A DNA stretch of 61,468 nt, filler included, from Circinaria calcarea (Eukaryota), in NCBI GenBank assembly GCA_051942165.1. It is 8 parts of 8 records of this genome, joined end to end, with 100 filler letters (N's around TTAATTAATTAA, not from the genome) between each part and the next. Parts side by side here need not be neighbours in the genome. Positions count along the whole stretch, not along the records: positions 15,430 to 23,036 come from JAVECS010001284.1; 7 more parts are not named here. One strand, written 5' to 3'. This document shows, one piece after another, positions 7,621 to 37,485 of this stretch. The notes under the pieces were generated by a model, which was not told the DNA's origin, made no database searches, and worked only from the letters and a program-made list of their open reading frames with translations. The number at the start of each line of letters is the position of its first letter. Position 1 is the stretch's first letter. The translations under genes and the position numbers were made by a program.

Positions 7621-7720
7621 NNNNNNNNNNNNNNNNNNNNNNNNNNNNNNNNNNNNNNNNNNNNTTAATTAATTAANNNNNNNNNNNNNNNNNNNNNNNN
7701 NNNNNNNNNNNNNNNNNNNN
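7621..7720. other. Artificial contig-joining spacer
   Basis: N44-TTAATTAATTAA-N44, which has stops in all six frames and is identical at seven positions. Confidence 0.99.
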
Positions 7721-15329: not shown

Positions 15330-15429
15330 NNNNNNNNNNNNNNNNNNNNNNNNNNNNNNNNNNNNNNNNNNNNTTAATTAATTAANNNNNNNNNNNNNNN
15401 NNNNNNNNNNNNNNNNNNNNNNNNNNNNN
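15330..15429. other. Artificial contig-joining spacer
   Basis: N44-TTAATTAATTAA-N44. Confidence 0.99.
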
Positions 15430-15498: not shown

Positions 15499-16660
15499 CT
15501 ATATATTTGTTATTGTGCTTGCGTTAAACTCTATAAAAGAGATAAGCCTGGATGACCGTTTTAGAACCACGTTCGAGCCGTGCACTGCAACACTACGTGT
15601 ACGATACTCCGAAGGTAGCCATAATATATTCTACTGCCTCCAAAGCACCCACGACTCTTTTACATATACATTTGATAACTACATTGGAACATGCTGAGGG
15701 TCTTCCTTGGGAAGGTACCTGCTTAATAGCACGCCTCTATTAGTCTGTAGGTAGGATCCGTCGGGCGAGAAGGAGAGTTTGTTGATGTATCCGTCAGCAT
15801 GAACTGTATCTAGCAGTGCTCCTGTCACCGCGTCCCACAGCTTAACTGTGTTGTCTTCAGATCTAGACGCCACCGTGTGTCCGTCCGGCGAGAATGCCAC
15901 TGCGTTGACAAACTCTGAATGGCCCTCGAGCGTGCTGTGCAGTGCTCCTGTCGCTGCGTCCCACAGCTTGACTGTGTTGTTTTTAGATCCAGACGCCACC
16001 ATGTGTCCGTCCGGCGAGAATGCCACTGCCCTGACCCAGTCTAAATGGCCCTCGAGCGTCTGCAAGCAGGCACTCCACTCTTGCTCGACCGCCGGCAGTT
16101 GAGATATCTACCCTGGAAGATGCTCGGAAAACAACTGTCGCATAATGCTTCTTTGCGGCGCGAATACCAACGCCGACCTGTATATCTGCAGTGGGGCTTG
16201 CTCGATAGTGAAGCGGCTGTATAAAATAAATCTTGTCGCATCCAGCAATAGTGCGCGCAGATCGCGGGACTGATCCTACAAGTTTTACACCTTGTTAGTC
16301 TCCTGGTAGGACAAAGGCGCTCTCGACTTACCTCGGAAGCTGTCCGTAGAGTGCTGAGCATATGCACGCCATCCGATAGCCTCTCTATAAGGCTAAGCGC
16401 CTCGAGCCAGAAGAGTAGCTTCTTTTGCAAGAAGGAATATACCAGCCTGCCCTCCTCCTCATGATGGAATTTGCCCTCCTTAACATGATCCACCCAGTGG
16501 CAGCATGCGTACTGTAAGTGGCGTGGAAGGGAGCACTGGAATGTCTCGCTGTCGATCTCACTAACGAGCATGCCCGGTCGACCAATACTGCACATATCTT
16601 TCTTCAGTAGTCGTGACATAGAGCCGAGCAGTCGTTGCGCTAGCTGACCATGCGAAGTTA
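15499..16660 (-). pseudogene. C-terminal remnant of a NACHT-WD40 (HET-E/NWD-type) NLR gene
   Basis: Motifs LQYACCHWVDH, LLFWLEALSLI, IEQAPLQIYRSALVFAP, two LEGH..V.AVAFSPDG..VAS.S..NTVKLWDA.TG WD repeats, and NILWLPSEYR. Nonsense codons include TAG at 16108-16110 (expected TGG) and at 15679-15681. No NACHT domain is visible upstream. Confidence 0.85.
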
Positions 16661-17241
16661 AGACCCCCAGTTTAGAGTCATTGATCTGACACCAAGATAA
16701 AAGCGACCACTGATATACAATTGTAACACAATTACAGAAACAGCTGCCGAAACGTCGTTCTGGCACCAAGAGCCTTACACATAAATCACAAAATTTCTCA
16801 ATTATTAAGGGTGGAAGCAGGCGAGAAACCACTGTTCTCCAGTAAGGGTTTAAAGCGTTGCTGGTGTTTTCAAACCATAATAGGTTGGGTTAAACTTAAG
16901 TTTTATAGCTGCATTACTACGGCTGGGTATCTTAAGAATAAATCAATCATACAGCCCCTGAGCGCACAGGCGCGGGCGCCTTATATCGCGTTGTACGCAA
17001 TTTTGCTTATACACTTATACGCTCGTTCCCCCATTAATTACAGAAGATAAAGCAATTAGACAGTTATTTCATCACCCCCAATTGTTTTCAATCATCACCA
17101 AATAAGCGCTACAACTTTCAGAATTCGACAAACCGCAATGATTCTACTATTGCGATAGGCTGAACGTAAAAGTGACGACCCCACGCTTCTCCCTCCTGCC
17201 CACAGATTGCCACTGCCACCCCAGTTTCCCAGCCTAGCTCT

Positions 17242-19602
17242 TTAGTCCTTAGACCTGCAAGCCTTCCGAAGAAGATTGTAAATATCGCGTTGCTCGGGCC
17301 GTTGCCCACTAGATACCATACGATGTTTTGCCATTTCTAAAGCCGTCCAGGAGAGCTTCTCGTCAGGCCAACACCCCTCGTCGCAGTCCCAGCACCAAAA
17401 ATCCGAACACCATTCACGCACAAATTGAGTCCAATATGGTGCTTTTGAGAGTTTCTTGTCGTCAACTCGCCAGATCGCTTCAATGTCAAGATTATGATTC
17501 GAGATCAAAAGTTCGACCATAATTTTGTTCTCGCGGGCAACTGCGATGTGGATCAGACTAAGACCGTCAGGAAATGCCACATTGACGTTGACTTCAGGAC
17601 GAGCTAGCATCGCCTCGCAGATCTCATGTGTTCCGAATGCCGCCGCCGCTCCGAGGAGAGAAATACCACAACTGTCTTGCCAGTTCACGTTGATGTCTTT
17701 GTCTTCAAGATAATCAAGTACATCAAGTATATAAAAAGGATGAAATTCATAATTGTCCTCTTTCGACCTTTGGCACAGAGTTCGGTAGAGTATCGCGTGT
17801 TTCAGCTGCGTCGGCTCAACGCCGATAATTTCTGCAGCCAATTGCTCGCCTTTGCGCCAGGCCTCGCTTTCATAATCTTCCAAGTGAGCGTTACCAATCG
17901 TTTTTGTGTCTCTAGACCAACCATAATCTCCATTAAACAAGCTTCGAATATCCCTATTTTCAAATTGAGTGAAGGTTATTACAGCACATAGCCATAGCGC
18001 CCTTTGATTCCAGACGCTACCATTCGGCTTTCTGTAATACGAACAGAGACGTGCGACGATGCTAATGATCTGATCGAGTTTCGTATTATTCTGGCAAGTC
18101 GTCGCGATTCAATTGTGGACGTGCCATATAGTACTAACAGTCTCTGTATAGAGATCTTCCTCTTCGTCGTCCAACCAGTCACCCAAAATCTCGAGAACGT
18201 TGCTAAGCATTTCATACCATCTGGTCGCACATTCTACAACGCAAGATCTGTTTAATGACAATTCTTCTTCCAGCGGTGCTTCGTCCGAAAGCAAGGAGAC
18301 TGTGGTTCCAGCGGGCCTGATATTCTTTAACCTCGACTTAAGAATATAATTGCTGGTGTAAAGATTTATCTGAATGTCTTCGATACCCATCTTGGTCAAT
18401 AAGAAAATAGCGATGAACCGGAACAATAACGGTGTGGATTTTCCAGATATTCTCGAAATAGAACTGTACTGAGATCGAGAACGAAGGCTCATCATGGAGA
18501 ACGATTCTCGTACGTGAGTTATCGCTTGTTTCTGCTCCTGAGTTTTGATAAAACCGGCCATTTTGTTCTTCAGATCATGTGGTGAGCGGATATTGCAGTA
18601 TTCGAAGAAAATCGCGATGGTATTAATACTAGGTTGTTTGTCGCCGAACTCCTTTAGCAAGAGTCTATGTTTTGGCTGTAGTGCGTTGATGATTGCCTGC
18701 CAGAAGTGGTTTGGTTCGTCGAATTTGAACAATTCGCAATCACGCTTGATGCGTTGTTCGCGTAATTTAAATAAATGATCTTGCATGATCTCGCACGACG
18801 CAATGGTACCCTTGATTGCATCGAGCACTCGAAGTTCGTCCCCTGACGGATATCCTAAAATGTGTTTGTAGTCAAGATCGTGCCGAATTTCTGCCCAAGC
18901 GTCCATCAACACTGTGCGAACCTGGATTTCGATCGCCTCATCATCATAATTCGGAATCTTCTCCGATACTTTAGGATGCGTCTTCTTCAATCGGATCCAG
19001 TAATGATCCGCTTCGTAGTATCCCATCCGCTCCATATATGGACGGGTCTCTGGATCCCTCATGATGTATTCGCGCTCTCGAAAAGGTTTCGCCGGCAAAT
19101 ATTCGGTCGGCCTAGGCTCTGTATCCTTATCCTCGTCCTCAGGGGTGTATGGAATTATTTCAAAATGCTCGTTCTGCTCTATAAAGTTCTTCACTTGCAG
19201 CAGTTGGCAGGGGAAGTACAAGCAGATCCGGGTAGCAGCAATGTCCCATCGCATTTCTCGAATGGAATCCAGAGTCTGACATTTTTTCGATTTCTGCATT
19301 CTCTCAATCTTTCCCTGCAACGATCCATTCTCCTTGACTCGGGATGAGTACGTTGCGTCGACGACTGGATCTTGCTCCTTCAAGCGCTTCAGTTCTTCTA
19401 GGACGAACGTGGCTAAAACACGCCAAAGAATCTCGCCTTTCTTCTTCACACCGTTTTCCTCGAATTCTACACGCTTGTTAAGAACTTCTTGAATAAACTC
19501 CAATTTTGCTTGCTCAGCCGTGTTCGAAGCAGTGCCTTGTTGCTCTACTGTGGTTTCTACGTCTTGTTGCTCAGCTGTATTTTCCGGTGATTGTTGCTCC
19601 AT
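17242..19602 (-). CDS. RelA/SpoT (small alarmone synthetase-like) nucleotidyltransferase domain fused to C-terminal ankyrin-like repeats, about 770 aa, with one 48-nt intron (18091-18138)
   Basis: Synthetase motifs in order: SRVKENGSLQGKI, WDIAATRI, GYYEADHYWI, EIQVRTVLMDAWAEIRHDLDYK. The two track ORFs are in the same frame and are joined by GTTAGT...CAG, which removes the only stop. Exon 2 has INVNWQDSCGISLLGAAAAFG and VNVAFPDGLSLIHIAVARENKIMVELLI. First ATG is 19602 (19620 is TTG). Confidence 0.85.
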
Positions 19603-20195
19603 TCTGTGAGTTGTAGCCAAGGCAGCGAAATTGTGGAGGGGAGATCAAAGATGCCGACCCAACCGGGCATAACTGATTTTTACGCTCAATGGACTTGGGC
19701 ACAGCCCTGCGGCTTGCATAAGCTGAGACCGTTAAGTGCCGACGCTGAGATGACGGAAAAATACGGCGCGATTTCTACTTTTTGGTTCCATTTCACTTTA
19801 TACACTTTGGCGGATAGTCTGATTCTCTACAGAGTGTGTAGAATATGGGGCCGCGGACACTTGCAATCCTGTCCTAGTTCGACCTTTCCATAAAGTTTTG
19901 ATTAATTATTCCCCGCAAGCTCTTGCTAGGCTGTGAGTTGAAAAAAACCCCGCAAGCCCCCTCATTTGTCCAATTATCGGAGCGCCGATCATCTATTAAT
20001 AAATGCTCACTTCAGCGGATGCCACCTAGCTAAATTTAATTTACTTGACTACAACCTCAGATAATCCATGTAGCCTTATCCCTCTCACGTTGTCAGCACA
20101 TCACTCCCTGAACTTTTCTCATTTTGATCGAGGAAAGCTCTCGAAAATCAAGATTGGCACATTGTCTAGCTGACTAAGCTACGAGATGCTTGAAG

Positions 20196-21703
20196 ATGTA
20201 TTCCAGCCGAGTTCAAGCCCAGAAACAGCGCAATTCTTGTCTTTCAGACCTGTACGAATATCTCCAGCAGCCTCGTCCAGCCCGAGACCACTCTCGCATT
20301 ATGTGTTTAGATATTTTCGAGCACCCGAGGCCTCCTATAAAGCGCAGTATAACCGTAAATGATCTCTCTAGCGAATTGCGAAAAGTAAAGCAGCAAGGGC
20401 ATTCACTCGAGCCTGATCGCAATGGTCGAATTCTGCTTATTGAAGATATTTCGAAGCAAACAGTCGAAGAGCTTGGCAGCTTTTTCGATATCGACCCTTG
20501 GTTCTTTACTTTTTATGTACACCAAACATGGTGTAAAACCAGCACTCATAGTCTCACAACCTGCTCACTACCGTCGCGCGATAGGAAGTAGAGCGTTTTG
20601 CTGTTGTAATATCACCGAACCGTGGTTTTCTAACTAAAAGATACAAGACTGAGATCGTTAACTCGCAATTGCAATCACCAACGCAAGGCGGTTATTCTGC
20701 CCGCGATAGGAGGGGATCAAGTTGGCTTAATATAACACTACTGTTCGGTTCTGCTCGTGAATTGTCCGGGGCAGGAATGGACCGGTACATCGTTCTGTCT
20801 CGATTATAAAGCTGCCTTTAAGTATGCACAGGTATTGTACTCGTTGATCCGTTAATATCAAATAACTACGTTCCATCGAAACGACACGGATCTTTACCAC
20901 CAAATCTTGAATTATCGCCTTTGCTTGGCGGCTGCGAAGACTTCTCCGATTCCCCAACAACAGAAGCCGAGAGATAGACACCCCCACTTATTTTAAACCG
21001 CGGTATGCTCGACGAATTGGTTCATTTCTGGACGCGTTAAACTCCACCAATGTTCACAGCCTTAACCCCAACCCTCCAAGCCCTCTTTTACTACCCACTC
21101 AAGATCGTAGCCGCAGAATGGGTGAATTATATCTTCGTCCTAGGAATGAGTCTGCGTGAATACGAACTCTCGATATCCCTTACCGGCGACTTGATCGCTG
21201 AACTCGAGAAACTGAATATCAATTTTCGTATCCTACAAGAATGGCGTAGGCGAATCCTTTCAACCTAAGCTAAAATACGGCGCATTATCCGCTTCGTGAA
21301 GAATCACCGTGATTCTGAGAAGCCGAGCGAGGACTGGGACGCGCTTGGAGAGGATTATGAGTTCATATATACTGAGGTGTCTGAGCACGGCGAGCGACTG
21401 GAGGCTATGGTTCCTCTCATCACGTTAGCTGCTGCACTGATTGAGAGTCGGCGGTCGTTGACTGAGACAGCCAATGTGACGCGTTTGACTATCTTGGCTC
21501 TTATTTTCATCCCCTTCAGCTATATTGCTTCACTGTTCAGTATGGCGGAAGACTTTGGGCCTAGGGGATCGCTGTTCTGGGTGTATTTTGCTACGGCGAT
21601 TCCGCTCGCTGTGGTTGTGGCGCTGTTTGCTACAATGCCTGTGAGGGCTGCGAGAAAATTGCAGGCAAGGTTCCTAGACATGAAGATGTTCAATTTTGGT
21701 TAA
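20196..21703 (+). pseudogene. Fungal CorA-like domain gene inactivated by multiple in-frame stops
   Basis: Motifs GRILLIEDISKQTVEELGSFFDIDPWFF and IESRRSLTETANVTRLTILALIFIPFSYIASLFSM...FWVYFATAIPL. At least seven TAA/TAG stops with no frameshift, e.g. 20589, 20607, 20631, 20733 and 21266. Confidence 0.85.
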
Positions 21704-21848
21704 AAATATAGGTAGCAGTGAAAACTGGCATATTAGTAAGTCGAAGACCTCAAGTATTTATAAAACCACTTAAGCGTGCTTAAGCACACACATTTCCAGT
21801 GAATATGCTCCCCTTCTCCGCATTCAGAGCAGCAGCCCCCTTTCTCTG

Positions 21849-22897
21849 TCACCAAAGTAGCACACCCGCAATCTCAGCGCAGATTGCAACAACACCCAGT
21901 GTCACCATGGCCCCGATAAAACCAGGCACCGCATTCAATATTATATTTCCACCACCTTTTACTTCCGTCGAGGCCGAGACTTCCGTATACATCTTGCAGA
22001 AATCCTCTTCGCTACCGTATATCTGGCACCACTCCTCGTACTCAGTAATCCCCCTATCCTCCATCTCCTCAACAAACTCGCTCCAGGACATCGTCGCCCT
22101 TTCGCATCCAAAAAGCGGGAACACATTCTGATCCCGGTAGTCCCATTGCGGAACAAGATCGGACGTTCAAACTCCCCACTGTCCTCCGGGAACGTCGTAG
22201 TATTCTCCTGCATGAAAAGTTCAGACGCCATCGTCGATGCGTAATCAGGCAAACCGGTAGAGTCCTTACTTATAGCCGTCAGGTTCGCAGAAGCCGAAGA
22301 AGGCGAGGAAAGAGTCGTAACTACCGGCTAGGAACGAGAACTTGGGTTTCTTGCCCTCCGATGCAACAGTCTGGTTTAGTTGGTGTAAAATGGCGCCTGC
22401 GAGCGTCTATTCACCGACGGAGCGCTCGGGTTGGCTGGCGTTGAAATTACCTGCGAATTCAGCGCTGTTGGCCAGTGTGCGCAAGTGGAACAGTTTTTTA
22501 TCCGTGAGGTTCCGCGGCACGGAGCTGTTGTGGAGGTTTGCTATATTCAGCAAATCGGAGATGTTGTACGCCTTCGCATAGGTCAGGTTCTCTAGCGTGT
22601 AGACGTATATATCTTCCAGTAGGTTCTAGAATCCGGCGTAGAAGTCTTTGGTCGACGAGAGTCTGGAGGCGTATTTCTCGCTGTAAGCGAAGGTCGAGGC
22701 GGCACTTATTAGTGCGGAGCATTCGTCGTCGCCTTTAAGTTAGATAATATCCGGGGAGTTTGCGTCGGCGCCGTGGAGGAAGACGTATTAATAGCCGTTG
22801 AGTGGATTCTGGATTATTGTGCTATTATTGAAACGCTGAGTGAAGAGATCGGTGTTATCGCTTCCTAGAAATAGGTAAAAGCCTTATAGAAAAACGG
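21849..22897 (-). pseudogene. Histidine acid phosphatase-family (C-terminally membrane-anchored) pseudogene, 5' part missing
   Basis: Read-through translation gives FL*GFY, NPLNGY*YVFLH, DII*LKGDDEC, GSYDSFLAFF, GLPDYASTM and LFRNGT, then a frameshift to FPLFG..MSWSEF..EWCQI and TM GFIGAMVTLGVVAI. Stops sit where Q or W codons are expected. Confidence 0.75.
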
Positions 22898-23036
22898 CTT
22901 CCATTACATGTACACCCCTTTAACCTACACGTACACCCCAAAAATCATAGTTGTACACCCCCCGGATTAGGTAAAAAAATAAAGTTCTTGCACTCGCGTA
23001 TATACCCACCAACACTGGTTTTCTACTTTGAAAATG
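22895..23036. mobile_element. Probable DNA-transposon terminus truncating the phosphatase gene
   Basis: Coding similarity ends abruptly and is followed by three GTACACCCC direct repeats within about 60 bp, running to the contig end. No transposase is visible. Confidence 0.35.
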
Positions 23037-23136
23037 NNNNNNNNNNNNNNNNNNNNNNNNNNNNNNNNNNNNNNNNNNNNTTAATTAATTAANNNNNNNN
23101 NNNNNNNNNNNNNNNNNNNNNNNNNNNNNNNNNNNN
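23037..23136. other. Artificial contig-joining spacer
   Basis: N44-TTAATTAATTAA-N44. Confidence 0.99.
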
Positions 23137-24712
23137 GCCCATAATAGTGTGAGTACAGCGTAAGGTATCCTGAGTTCATCCCTTTTTAGCAACGGAAACA
23201 GTGTCCACGCTCCCAGTATATTTGCCCAGCCTATCCATGCTCTTGATTCCGGTCCTAGACCCTTATCGCTGGCCAACAGAGCCGTCATCGGTAGTAGAGG
23301 CAGGAGTATACTCTTTTCATGGACCTGGAATGAGCATAAGAAGAAACCCCAAGCGGAGCTTGCCATTGCCAAGGGGAGAAGCTCTTTCCGTGGAGCATGA
23401 GAAATCGTCATGCACGCTGGTAGAATAGCGATCAAGGTTGCTGAAAAGGATGTTCGTTGCAGCATAGGCATAGGAAAGTTGTTCAGTTTGTAGCCCGTGT
23501 GAATAACGCACCACAAATTTGCAACCTTGTCTTCAAAGATGCCCCGAGCAAAGGGGAAAATGCGGTGGAGAGATTGAGTCAGCTGTAGGAGAGGAGAGAA
23601 TATCCAGCTCCTGTTGTTGAACTTTATAGGGAGGAGATCGAGAATAGCGGGAGGTTTCGCGTCGATACTTAAAGAAGGGTTTCGGATATGCACGTACAGA
23701 GAGCCAAGAAGTAGCGGCGCGAACATAATCGCAAATGACGCAAGGGTAGTGGCGGAGATGGCAGTAAACCGAAGAGGGTTCGGTTTAGGATGTATACACA
23801 CGCCTAGCAAATAAGCAAACACGGCCGGCGCATAATATAGAGCCATCTGCTTGAAACATAATGCCGCCACGAAGAAGACACATCCCCAGAGGAGTCTACC
23901 AGCGATGATGCTGGACATGCTAGCGAGTACGAAACCTAGCATGACAGTATTATACTGAAAATGACCATGGTCAATTAAGATATTCGCCGGTTGCATAAGG
24001 ATTGCTACCAGTGCCACTGAGCTCTCCCACGCACTAACACTTCGTAGTCGTGAGAGTCGTCGAGTAAAGACAATAGTAGCGGGAATGTATATGAGGTACT
24101 CGGAGATTAAGACGGTCGATCGCATGTAAACTTTGAGGAGCTGGTTTTCCATTCCCCTTGAGGTATCTAGTGCGAACCAGCTCGGGTTAATTAGGGAACC
24201 ACTACAAGTACCATCAGCATAGGTTCACGTGCACCTTCTTGTGGTAGCTTCTTACATTTTCCCAAGAAGCCAGCTATGGTATGCAGTTAAAGGCGGGTAG
24301 TCGAGACCCCAGTATGGTAGGTCATAGAAGTACCATTGAGACATTGGTAAGTGGGCGGTGACTTCCATCCAATGTCTCTGAGCTTCAAAGTCGCCATACA
24401 GGGGGGGTTTTTGGAAGCCTAAGGCCTTGTTAGCTTCGAGGGTAGGATGTTCGGCTCAATTCGCGTACCTGAGTAACCCCAAAATCCTACTACCCACCTG
24501 AAGAGCCCTACCGCCATAAGTATCAGCGGTATTATAACCCATTGTGAAGTTGATTTCCGTGCAGGCCAGAAGAACGCTGCGAGCGGAAATGCTGGACTTG
24601 AGCTGTCTGAATTGGGAGTAGTTGTAACGGCGCCCTGGCTGGAATTGGCCAGTAGAGCATCCTGACCCTTCTTCTTCTTCCTCGACCGATGAGGAGAGGA
24701 AATAGAAGGCAT
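23137..24712 (-). CDS. ALG6: Dolichyl pyrophosphate Man9GlcNAc2 alpha-1,3-glucosyltransferase, 3'-truncated by the contig end
   Basis: ATG at 24712. Motifs [64 protein letters not shown] and [11 protein letters not shown]. Two introns. Confidence 0.95.
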
Positions 24713-33596: not shown

Positions 33597-36500
33597 TCAT
33601 GGAAGGTTATGTACTTTCTGTGATACTTCCTCTGCATGGTGGCTTGCGATGCTGGTGGTTTCTTCGTTTTCATGATCGGATAGCTCCTGGACTTTACCTG
33701 CTTTCTCTAGAGCCTCTCTTTGAGTATTAAGTTCGTCTGCTTCCTCCATTCGTCCAAGTTGCTCGTAAATTAATGCTAGGTTGTGCAAGCTTTTGAGCGT
33801 ATCGGGATGTTCTTCCCCCAGCACCTTCTTCCTTAATCTTAGCACCTCTGTTTGTAGCTCCTCAGCCTCATTTAATCTCTGTTGATTCAAGTAAGTATAT
33901 GCTAGGTTATGCAAGCTTCTGAGAGTCTCGGGATGTTCTCCCTCTAGCGCTTTCATCCTTAATCTTAGCACCTCTGTGTGTAGCTCCTCAGCCTCATTTA
34001 ATCTCTGTTGATTCAAGTAAATGCATGCTAGGTTGTGCATGCTTCCGAGAGTATCAGGATGTTTTTCCCCCAACACTTTCTTGCTTAATCTTAGCACCTC
34101 TGTGTATCGCTCCTCAGCCTCATTCAATCTCTGTTGATTCAAGTAAGTGTATGCTAGGTTATGCAAGCTTCTGAGAGTCTCAGGATGTTCTCCCCCCAGC
34201 GCCTTCATCCTTAATCTTAGCACCTCTGTGTATAGCTCCTCAGCCTCATCCCAGCTCTCTTGCTTTTCGTAAGTGTATGCTAAGTTTCCCATGCTTTGGA
34301 GAGTATCGGGATGTTCTTCCCCTAACACCTTCTTCCTTAATCTTAGCACCTCTATATGTAGCTCCTCAGCCTTATCCCAGCTCTCTTGCTTTTCGTAAAT
34401 ATATGCTAGGTTATACATGTTTCCGAGAGTACGAGGATATTCTTCCCCCAGCACCTTTTTCCTTAATCTTAACACCTCTATGTATAGCTCCTCGGCCTCA
34501 TTCAATTTCTCTTGCTGTTCGTAAATGCATGCTAAGTCTTCCATGTTTTCGAGGGTTTTAGGATGTTCTTCCCCAAACACCTCCTTCCTTGATCTTAGTA
34601 CCTCTGTGTATAGCTCCTCAGCCTCATTCCACCTCTCTTGGTTCGAGTAGGTATGTGCCAGGTCCGCCATAACATTTAGCGTCAGAATATGTCCTTCTCC
34701 AAGCATTTCGTTTCTCATCAATCTTAACACCTTCATCTGTAACTCTTCGGCTTCGTGCCATCGTTTTTGCCTTTGATACGTGGATGCTAAATCTTTGAAA
34801 GATCCTAGCGTCTCAGGAGATATCTCACCATACACCCTTTTCTTGAACTCCAACACTTGCTTTTGCAGCTCTTCAGCTTCCACTAATCTGCCGGTCTGGC
34901 AATAGGACAGTGCTAAATTTGCTATACTGATAATAATATCAGGGTGCTCCGTTCCCAACATTCTCCTTTGTATTTCAAGAACATTTTGGTAAAGCTTTTG
35001 ACCCATTTCGTGAGAATCTAAACCAAAGTAGCTGTTTGCTAGATGTGCTGTGAAACTCACAGTCAAACCGTTCTCTTCTCCTAGCGTACTCTTTGCTATT
35101 TCTAATAAGCGCACTTGGAGGTCCTTTGCTTCGTCGTAACGCCGCTGCCGCTGGCAACTGAATGCAAGGCAATCGATACAGCTAAGTGGACCTTCGTGTT
35201 TGTCCCAATTCACCCCCAAAACGCACTCATAAATCGCCAACGCTCGCCGGCTCAGTTCTTCGGCTGCTTTGTACTTTGCTCGATCGTTCAAACACCGTGC
35301 TAAATCCCTCATTCTATCCAGTGTTATCAGGTTCTGGTCGCCATATGCACTTATGCTCCACTCCAGAGCTAAGTTCGCCAGTGATTCTCCGTCATTGGAG
35401 GTGCCTTGCTTTGAAAAATAGCGAGACAAATTCGAAGCTAAATAAGCTCGGAGATCGTCATGTGCAGGAGAGAGCTGGTCATAAGCAAGGACGGCCCGTG
35501 CGTGTGGCAAGTACAACCGGCAAGTGCCCCACGTTTCATACTCTGGATCCGGGAACTCATCCGAGAGGGTTATCAAGCACGACTTTGCCCAATTGTCAAA
35601 CTCATCATTCAGTCTCAGCCAATTCCGCGTGGCCAAATACACCAATCGGTGCATATCAAATAATGTGTCATTTTGGCTGGCGGTGATTAGGGAGTATGCT
35701 TTTAGAATGCCTATAGCATTGGAAAGTTTCACTGTGCTTCCACAAGGCGGCAGAAGATCTTTCGGTATTCCTTGTCGATCGAGACAAGCCATGAAAGAAA
35801 GTAGATCGGCCGCTGAAGGATTGGACTGTCGGATCTGGTCGAATGAAATCACCCATGTCGCAGCAACGGGATTGCGCGTCTCGCCTTCTCTTGCGAGGTC
35901 CTCGAAATCCTCACTGAGAAGTTCTATCCGAGAGGCCTCACTTTCGTTGTACATCTGAAGGTACTCTTGCACCGTGGTCGAGTTCTCGGCGATATAAGAT
36001 GCGGCCTGAGTGATTGCGAGAGGGAGGTATTCCAGTACTTCAAGCAATTCCCTTACACTTTCCTGATTAGCGGTATTATCTTCCGAACGAGCTTGGAAGA
36101 GCTCTTCTGAATCGTTCCGTTCCATTGGTCCTAGGGAAATAACCCCGCTAATCGTCGAGAATTTTATGCCAACTTTCTTGTTTCGCGTGGTGAATAAGAT
36201 CGATCCATTCGAGCACTGGGGGACGAAATCGGAAAGACGCTTCGTGCCAGCAGACTCCGCTGGCCCGAAGAATAGATCCGCATCGTCCGCATTGTCAATA
36301 ATCATCAACCACTTGCCAGCCGCCTTGCTGTTTAGCCAATCTTTGACAAGCTTCTTAGTGTCTTGGTTAGGATCATTAATCCCAGGTATCTTTGCCCTTG
36401 TTCCAATCTGGAGGTAGTCCTGATCAAATCGCGATGCGGTACTTGCGTACACCCAGAATACTGAGGCTTCAGGGTGCTTTTTATGGAATCTATAAGCATA

Positions 36501-37485
36501 CTCAATGGCAACCTGTGACTTTCTGAACAGTATCAGTCAAAAGTAGTGCAACTAAATGCCATTGATTCCACGTACCCGATCCCGCCGAGACCAACCAAAG
36601 TCACACGATTGTGTCTATTCCCTGGCTCAAGTTTTGCAGCGAGATCGTTGAGGTAGATGTCCTGGCCAACGAAGCCTGGATTCCTGGCGAAGGGAACCAT
36701 AAAGTGACTTGCTATACTGATGCATTCAGGTGGCAATGGCTGCGCGTTTGAATTCAACTTTACCGTACTGTCAGCTTCACAGCTCATTCGATGCTTATGC
36801 AGAGTCTCTGGTGTTGTAAAATCTTGTCGTATGAGCAACCACACCAATTTAGACCAGATATAAGAACATTGGTAATAGCAGGCATATTTCGGAACTAGCA
36901 TTCAAAGGCAAGAACATCAATAAGCACGATAGAAACGTAAGGAAAAAGATCTCTGTACCGTGAGTTGCTGCATGATACTGTTCATCTGCAAAGTAATTGC
37001 CGGGAGTTCTTTATGGAGTAATGCTCTAAACGGGTGTCAGTCATAGTCACAGTCGAATTCTGGGAATCCTACGAATCTATTGTCTGAATGGCTAGGGTTA
37101 ATGAGCTCTTCTGCCGCTCGAGTTTCTCAAACAGTGCATTGATCTTCTTTTCTTTCATGATCCCATCAATAGCCTTCCAGAGCTGCTTTACTTTCCCATC
37201 TCCGACTTCCAAGGCGGTCTTCCTTAAAGTATCTTGTAAAAGATTCACTTCGACGAGACATTCTCTCAGTATCGAAGCTACCGCCCCAGTCTGAAGTGAC
37301 TGATTACTCTCAATCAGTCGGGAGACCTCGACGAGCCGCTCAATCTGGACCACCTGCTTCCGGACGGATTCAGGCGCGTCTTGGACCTTCTTGTATAGAT
37401 CTGAAACGAAGACTATTACTTTGACGCCCTGCTCAACAAGCTGGGAGGCGGCTGCCAAGGCTCCCAGCACTTCGAGTCCGGACAT
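33597..37485 (-). CDS. Fungal NLR-like STAND protein: SesA/HeLo-like N-terminal domain + NB-ARC + TPR array, multi-exon, apparently intact
   Basis: N-terminus MSGLEVLGALAAASQLVEQG..; VPFARNPGFVG; Walker A GLGGIG/KSQ across an intron; Walker B WLMIIDNADD; GSILFTTR; LPLAITQAA; DMHRLV; then 42-aa repeats of the HPDTL.S..NLA..Y..Q....EAEEL...VL type. Confidence 0.92.
33730..34700 (-). repeat. Array of highly similar 126-bp TPR-coding repeats
   Basis: The sequence cttaatcttagcacctct...tagctcctcagcctca recurs at a 126-nt period. Confidence 0.9.

Follow-up and report, generated by a model that had tools for sequence, protein, structure and literature searches.

A gene for an alarmone synthetase fused to an ankyrin-repeat tail lies on the minus strand at 17242..19602 of a 61,468-nucleotide (nt) stretch of DNA, here called the window, from the ascomycete Circinaria calcarea (assembly GCA_051942165.1). 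Taken as a whole, it is probably best explained as a synthetase-helical-ankyrin gene of the small alarmone synthetase (SAS) family that is broken at codon 498 and has been fitted with a spurious intron. A single ancestral open reading frame (ORF) would have been cut by a TGA at a codon that is a conserved tryptophan in the relatives, and the 48-nt intron put forward both by our initial annotation and by a public gene model would be a rescue of this stop and not a real intron. The copy would then be a very young nonsense allele, either a pseudogene or the source of a truncated product of 497 amino acids (aa) without ankyrins, unless the base in question is a sequence error. The gene and its parts are laid out as follows.

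17242..19602, minus strand: whole gene, read through from the ATG at 19602..19600 to the last stop at 17244..17242, with a TGA in frame at codon 498
19602..18112, minus strand: first ORF, 497 codons, ending at the TGA at 18111..18109
18109..18111, minus strand: in-frame stop TGA, codon 498; Trp in the homologues and TGG in the DNA of a relative, L001
18108..17245, minus strand: second ORF, 288 codons, in the same frame as the first
18091..18138, minus strand: candidate intron GTTAGT...CCAG, 48 nt, codons 489-504 (VSTIWHVHN*IATTCQ); judged to be conserved coding sequence
18751..19500, minus strand: predicted small-alarmone-synthetase fold, aa 35-284, from structure superposition and Pfam
17818..18750, minus strand: family-specific, all-helical domain in the AlphaFold2 models, aa 285-595
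17245..17817, minus strand: domain of about four ankyrin repeats, aa 596-786; the model shows an insert of low confidence at aa 731-740

The gene spans 786 codons, internal stop counted. The second ORF has no methionine ahead of the ankyrin repeats and therefore continues the first ORF instead of forming a separate gene.

The case against an intron comes from comparison with the relatives. The 48-nt stretch has GT...AG boundaries, is in frame, and its removal takes out the TGA; the public 770-aa gene model P0002, which its source labels a hypothetical protein from a Circinaria calcarea metagenome-assembled genome and which is 100% identical over aa 1-488, leaves out exactly those 16 codons. 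However, in a 10-sequence alignment all eight homologues besides P0002 carry the segment as (V/L)STxWHVHEW(V/I)AT.YQ, for instance as ISTSWHVHEWVATTYQ in P0003 and VSTTWHICEWIATIYQ in P0004, and all eight have Trp at the position of codon 498. The same Trp is present in 10/10 of the closest homologues in a 99-sequence alignment, while among the further-out sequences of the 99 this column is mixed and the alignment is unreliable there. Identity to P0004, P0008 and P0009 amounts to 9/16 residues each within the segment and to 20, 19 and 15 of 60, respectively, in the flanks; for P0003, the values are 10/16 and 40/60. Judged by these alignments, few stretches of the family outside the catalytic part are conserved as well as these 16 codons.

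The DNA of L001, whose protein is 45% identical, forms one uninterrupted ORF of 865 codons. It reads ACT GTC AGC ... GAA TGG GTG ... CAA where the window reads ACT GTT AGT ... AAT TGA ATC ... CAG, and neither splice dinucleotide stands at the proposed boundaries; therefore, the "donor" of the window corresponds to a pair of Val-Ser codons and its "acceptor" to a Gln codon. The Trp is kept as well in L002, a more distant and frame-broken contig. The fungal branch site has the consensus CTRAY or YTNAY, and neither motif occurs inside the 48 nt. In the predicted structure, a helix at residues 479-496 runs into the segment (pLDDT, the predicted local distance difference test, of 92, 94 and 85 over the block of residues 481-510), so that removal of the 48 nt would delete half of a confident helix together with the turn that follows it. 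Alignments and model agree that the 48 nt are most likely conserved coding sequence and not an intron. What survives of the intron proposed in the initial annotation is thus its outward form, namely the GT-AG ends, the preserved frame and the loss of the one TGA; conservation as coding sequence in 8/8 homologues and the single ORF of L001 speak against the intron itself. The further description of the gene as "intron-bearing, domesticated" was not borne out, as the family gene is intronless where its DNA is readable (L001).

Apart from the stop, the copy shows little sign of decay. At otherwise invariant columns it carries three private changes (L351F, E497N and W498stop), compared with 1 to 19 in the eight other sequences. 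Two of these are adjacent: at 18106-18117 on the minus strand the window has AATTGA against GAATGG in L001, three differences in six bases, a cluster that looks like either a single clustered mutation or a local sequence fault. Other long ORFs in the window, of 1609, 979 and 611 codons, are unbroken and give no hint of frequent sequence errors; on this ground, a real nonsense change seems likelier than a sequence error. As a separate observation, the metagenome contig L002 changes frame within positions 1040-1240, shortly ahead of the segment that reads "..AWHGMHVW..", and has a TAG immediately upstream; the ORF of this contig is thus broken or intron-bearing within a few codons of the stop position of the window.

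The first part of the protein is well supported as a synthetase. Pfam RelA_SpoT (PF04607) matches aa 87-247 (19344..18862) with 42.6 bits against a cut-off of 27 (E value of 8.6e-11). A Pfam scan of both ORFs with E values up to 0.1 returned no families but RelA_SpoT and Ank, besides a chance-level CagD match; HD, TGS, ACT, NACHT and NB-ARC domains were all absent. A search of the PDB with the single sequence matched only RelP/RelQ chains (best E value of 9e-5). A profile of 99 family members retrieved RelQ 2be3 at 5.3e-15, RelP 6fgk at 1.9e-13 and RelQ 5dec at 3.1e-10 (5e-15 to 4e-10 over the RelQ/RelP structures overall), while for 7ztb and 9erv, which we take to be CapRel chains, the E value was about 3e-3 (3.5e-3) with about 58 positions covered. 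We modeled the read-through protein with AlphaFold2, placing X at the stop, and obtained a mean pLDDT of 85.5 and a predicted template modeling score (pTM) of 0.79. Residues 35-284 of this model superpose in VIA-align on RelQ 5dec_B with a Z score of 15.9 and a root mean square deviation of 2.7 A over 187/191 residues, and the model gave a Z score of 15.6 with RelP 6ewz_B. RelP and RelQ also held the top ranks in Foldseek, with template modeling (TM) scores of 0.70-0.78 normalised by target and a probability of 1.00. All four signatures of RelA/SpoT homologue (RSH) synthetases are present:

19309..19341, minus strand: motif RVKENGSLQGK (R88, K90, S94, K98), aligned with "GRVKPIESIKEK" of RelQ
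19228..19245, minus strand: motif DIAATR (D120, R125), with Ala123 where at least 90% of the family has Gly
19003..19023, minus strand: motif GYYEADH (Y196, H200), aligned with GYRSYH of RelQ
18865..18930, minus strand: motif EIQVRTVLMDAWAEIRHDLDYK (E225, Q227, W236, H241, Y245, K246), containing EIQVRT...WAEIRHDLDYK

R88, K90, D120, R125, Y196, H200, E225, Q227, W236, H241, Y245 and K246 are at least 90% conserved among the 99 sequences, and all are kept here. The sole departure at the near-invariant sites of the catalytic motifs is the replacement of Gly123 of DxxGxR by Ala; DIAATR also occurs in the homologue P0012. In the GY..H motif the family has E/A/D in place of R/S/Y of RelQ, and Y.A.H is usual throughout the family, also in its bacterial members. 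Since this acceptor-side motif differs from that of RelQ, the acceptor pocket may differ from that of a GDP/GTP enzyme. By alignment and predicted fold, this compact protein of three domains has an active site of the RelQ/RelP type that is complete. These results support the assignment of the ascomycete gene, by domain content and model, as an SAS-type, synthetase-only RSH that is fused to a C-terminus of ankyrin repeats. They also agree with the initial annotation, which had predicted such a fusion, listed the four signatures in order and reported no HD hydrolase, TGS or ACT domain; the Pfam search that it had proposed returned RelA_SpoT above the cut-off as well as Ank matches, and a structural counterpart was found along with the profile match.

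The remainder of the protein appears to consist of two parts. Folded alone, aa 254-640 reached a pLDDT of 79.8, and comparison of the helical domain with 48,161 chains gave generic helical bundles with a best Z score of 5.5 and no convincing known fold. The ankyrin-like C-terminus that had been noted from the sequence is recognised in the second ORF by Ank_2 (28.7 bits; cut-off 27.3), Ank_3 (26.8; 22.3) and Ank_4 (28.6; 22.7), and the residues from about 596 to 786 superpose on designed ankyrin repeat proteins (DARPins) with Z scores of 14.2-14.8 over 123-139 aligned residues. With about four divergent repeats, it is unlike the repeat-rich sensor array of a NOD-like receptor (NLR). The part that follows the stop (aa 499-786) is 58% identical to P0003, and its 288 codons are fully open. 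A search with this C-terminal module returned only P0002, P0003 and one generic ankyrin protein, and a protein atlas returned generic bacterial ankyrin clusters; neither the search, which was word based and of limited reach, nor the atlas gave any sign of the module on other head domains. We propose a protein of three parts: a pyrophosphokinase domain resembling RelQ/RelP at the N-terminus, then the helical domain peculiar to the family, and last a short ankyrin domain; it has neither a hydrolase domain nor a nucleotide-binding oligomerization domain (NOD). The intact enzyme would be expected to use ATP as pyrophosphate donor and the 3'-OH of a purine nucleotide as acceptor, and the helical-ankyrin part probably binds a protein partner that sets where or when the enzyme acts.

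An exhaustive HMMER search yielded 934 relatives at E values up to 1e-3, 16 of them at up to 1e-30. The nearest relatives form a fungal clade with protein lengths of about 640-905 aa; its named sources are Alternaria, Curvularia, Lophiotrema, Dendryphion and Ophiobolus. Stand-alone proteins from the fungi Fusarium (476 aa) and Hypoxylon (677 aa) follow, together with proteins from the bacteria Rhizobium (412 aa) and Chromobacterium (432 aa). Among 34 relatives that were scanned for domains, 33 have RelA_SpoT, 6 have ankyrin repeats and 1 has tetratricopeptide (TPR) repeats, and none has a NOD (NACHT/NB-ARC); the best 150 relatives include no protein longer than 927 aa. The TPR-bearing protein, P0116 (593 aa), carries the same synthetase and no NOD and represents a second architecture of a head plus repeats. 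Of other libraries, NCBIfam gave only a partial YjbM match far below threshold (35 bits vs 320) and the defence library PADLOC only a weak PDC-S33 match (E value of 0.0042).

The bacterial group comprises 445 loci in a species-genome collection, many of them in Clostridia, and aligns with aa 30-360 of the fungal clade with an hhalign probability of 100% and an E value of 3e-39. Among 80 bacterial relatives no neighbor gene is shared family-wide, the largest cluster of ORFs of at least 60 aa covering 11/80. The tails of the bacterial relatives of about 430 aa (e.g., P0041, P0046 and P0055) end in F...W..LE ... R..RN...HG, and among 27 such tails we recorded weak, sub-threshold HEPN-type matches, namely HepT-like in 2 (1.4e-4), DUF4145 in 3 (0.0042), RiboL-PSP-HEPN in 4 (0.013), Swt1-HEPN in 2 and Csm6-HEPN in 1. 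These matches suggest that the bacterial relatives are synthetase-HEPN fusions; none of the papers that a search on HEPN domains and alarmone synthetases listed, judged by title and abstract, concerns such a fusion. A MAFFT alignment placed W493 of the window under the bacterial F...W..LE motif (72/80), which was first taken as a shared "intron" segment. Both this correspondence and a HEPN ancestry of the fungal aa 430-640 were dropped, as hhalign gave a probability of 0.1% against the bacterial tails.

Among the closest known systems, RelQ (SAS1/YjbM) and RelP (SAS2/YwaC) (PDB 5dec, 5ded, 2be3, 6ewz and 6fgk) share with the present protein the fold over nearly the whole RelQ chain, the order of the motifs, the catalytic Asp and Glu, and the lack of a hydrolase. 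It differs in being only 18-20% identical to them, in about 45 conserved residues inserted ahead of the GY..H motif, in about 500 extra residues (helical plus ankyrin) and in its eukaryotic host. The bacterial RelA/SpoT-domain proteins (about 410-450 or 590 aa; P0040, P0041 and those of Clostridia) match the fungal clade over the synthetase and the beginning of the helical domain, whereas their tails are weakly HEPN-like, do not match the fungal aa 430-640 and bear no ankyrin repeats. CapRel, a fused toxSAS-antitoxin of phage defence (PMC9712102), similarly combines an N-terminal synthetase-type domain with a C-terminal, non-catalytic and possibly regulatory part, but its sequence relation to our protein is weak (E value of 3.5e-3 over about 58 positions), its C-terminal domain is another one and its host is not a eukaryote.

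Fungal RelA_SpoT enzymes as such, alone or on NLRs, are already known (2011, 2014), and the initial annotation had mentioned such domains in ascomycetes. Divergent synthetase-only RSH proteins in Aspergillus and Gibberella, which have no RSH hydrolase, were termed "divRel" by Atkinson et al. in 2011 (PMC3153485), and a fungal subfamily was named "FunRel" by Jimmy et al. in 2019 (bioRxiv 10.1101/575399). By the descriptions in the parts of these papers available to us, divRel/FunRel resembles the present gene in its ascomycete origin, in having the synthetase domain only and in the absence of an RSH hydrolase from the genome; the named fungal relatives of our protein come from Fusarium, Hypoxylon, Alternaria, Curvularia, Ophiobolus, Lophiotrema and Dendryphion. 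The ankyrin-bearing architecture, in contrast, does not figure in those parts of PMC3153485 or bioRxiv 10.1101/575399. RelA_SpoT was listed in 2014 as one of 12 N-terminal annotation classes of fungal NLRs, accounting for <1% of annotations, and the authors considered that it might serve to manipulate bacteria (excerpts of PMC4986451); it was still given as a canonical NLR head in 2025 (excerpts of PMC12258605). Such NLRs share with our protein the N-terminal Pfam domain and the design of an ascomycete multi-domain protein that ends in superstructure-forming repeats, whereas our protein has no NACHT or NB-ARC domain and its ankyrin part is short and divergent. We did not meet the NOD-less ankyrin form in the literature, nor a product or phenotype for a fungal synthetase-only RSH (subscription journals and supplements lay outside the coverage).

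An immune role modeled on such systems is the alternative that fares best, although we regard it as tentative and on balance doubtful. Following the logic of a fused toxin-sensor such as CapRel, or of the RelA_SpoT heads of NLRs, the C-terminus would restrain the enzyme until a non-self protein binds, whereupon the enzyme would poison the cell or signal. The gene does stand beside the relic of a NACHT-WD40 NLR, an NB-ARC-TPR gene lies 14 kb off by window coordinates, and RelA_SpoT has been linked to fungal NLRs, at least in the portions of PMC4986451 available to us. Relatives exist that combine the same synthetase with ankyrin (6/34) or TPR repeats (1/34) and no NOD, and the pTM of 0.79 suggests a compact multi-domain body. 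Against this, the domain is in sequence close to the housekeeping synthetases RelQ/RelP (5e-15) and barely sees the CapRel chains (3.5e-3), the only PADLOC match is the weak one to PDC-S33 (E 0.0042), the ankyrin part has only about four divergent repeats with no other head found on the same module, and the 80 bacterial relatives have no conserved neighbor gene (largest cluster 11/80). That the family constitutes a NOD-less eukaryotic immune or allorecognition enzyme, held back by its own C-terminal module and released by a non-self protein, is a conjecture to which we give a low probability. If it were true, a toxic or signalling pyrophosphorylated nucleotide (or RNA modification) would arise in a fungal cytosol without a known alarmone hydrolase.

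Returning to the stop codon, several observations weigh against our account of a broken copy with a spurious intron, and most of them would fit a real, spliced GT-AG intron yielding an intact 770-aa protein. The 48-nt stretch combines GT-AG ends (GTTAGT donor, CAG acceptor), a length compatible with fungal introns and a restored frame, and an independent public model, P0002, treats it as an intron. While any GT...AG rescue is available at 96% of the test codons, which were taken from the long ORFs of the window, an in-frame rescue as strict as GTNNGT...YAG within 42-120 nt is available by chance at only 346/5571 (6.2%). The gene is otherwise undecayed, with only three private changes, and a young intron would likewise account for the location of two of them within the 48 nt. 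A further point, which concerns the synthetase, is the Ala in place of Gly123 of the DxxGxR motif. Nevertheless, we consider a real intron unlikely: the segment is coding in 8/8 aligned homologues and better conserved than its flanks, GTT AGT and CAG are codons of a conserved Val-Ser and Gln that read GTC AGC and CAA in the single ORF of L001, no YTNAY branch motif is present, and splicing would cost the protein half of a confidently predicted helix plus the turn that follows. Equally unlikely is the more particular version of an intron in the making in this lichen fungus, whereby cryptic GT-AG sites within conserved codons would serve to bypass a nonsense change.

Quite improbable, too, is a genuine and tolerated stop, by which the gene would encode a 497-aa synthetase-plus-helical protein without ankyrins and the downstream ankyrin ORF would be a fresh relic. 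Stand-alone relatives of about 410-520 aa do exist (P0031 of Fusarium, 476 aa; P0020, 516 aa; P0040 of Rhizobium, 412 aa; P0041 of Chromobacterium, 432 aa), and the downstream ORF, having no Met before the ankyrin repeats, cannot be expressed alone. However, the stop interrupts a helix that is conserved in the fungal clade and does not coincide with a domain border, and the 288 codons beyond it have stayed open, with 58% identity to P0003, which leaves no time for the selection of a new role. Moreover, transcripts with an early stop are usually degraded, as a matter of general knowledge. Very unlikely, finally, is a synthetase domain that is catalytically dead in this copy or clade and acts as a nucleotide-binding or scaffolding module: Ala at Gly123 of DxxGxR, YEADH in place of YRSYH of RelQ on the acceptor side and the lack of a known RSH hydrolase for removal of the product in fungi with such synthetases (by the available parts of PMC3153485) would fit it, but the catalytic Asp and Glu of RelQ and the basic residues of the ATP site are kept and nearly invariant in the 99 sequences, the change of Gly to Ala is mild and common to P0012, and YxAxH is normal for the whole family, bacterial members too.

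With a broken synthetase-helical-ankyrin gene as the favored account, caution is due with the public 770-aa model, as the intron on which it depends most likely masks a stop. For experiments, the copy would be poorly suited, and it serves rather as an example of gene callers masking young pseudogenes. With its compact, NOD-less architecture, the family lends itself to work on what eukaryotic synthetase-only RSH enzymes make and do, and culturable fungi carry intact members of it.

Directly downstream of the gene, at 15679-16889 on the minus strand, lies the tail of a NACHT-WD40 NLR with two WD40 repeats and without the NACHT domain. It is read in three frames (16889..16276, 16275..16108 and 16107..15679), and its relatives have PF05729 NACHT in 10/11 domain lists, and WD40 as well; it looks like a 5'-truncated, frame-broken NLR relic. 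We considered that the gene had simply inserted into this neighboring relic, and rejected the idea because no NACHT half was seen upstream of the gene (19650-23100) among ORFs of at least 70 aa inspected by eye. At 33597-36536 on the minus strand there is an intact ORF of 979 codons with ten TPR_10 repeats and an NB-ARC match of 22.6 bits, just below the cut-off; judged by these domains, it is an NB-ARC-TPR gene of the NLR type, situated 14 kb from the synthetase gene in the coordinates of the window. Paired 44-base runs of N recur every ~7.7 kb (7621-7720, 15330-15429, 23037-23136 and onward); they cut through genes, for example through an ALG6/ALG8 ORF at 23085-24224, and resemble masking more than assembly gaps or anything biological.

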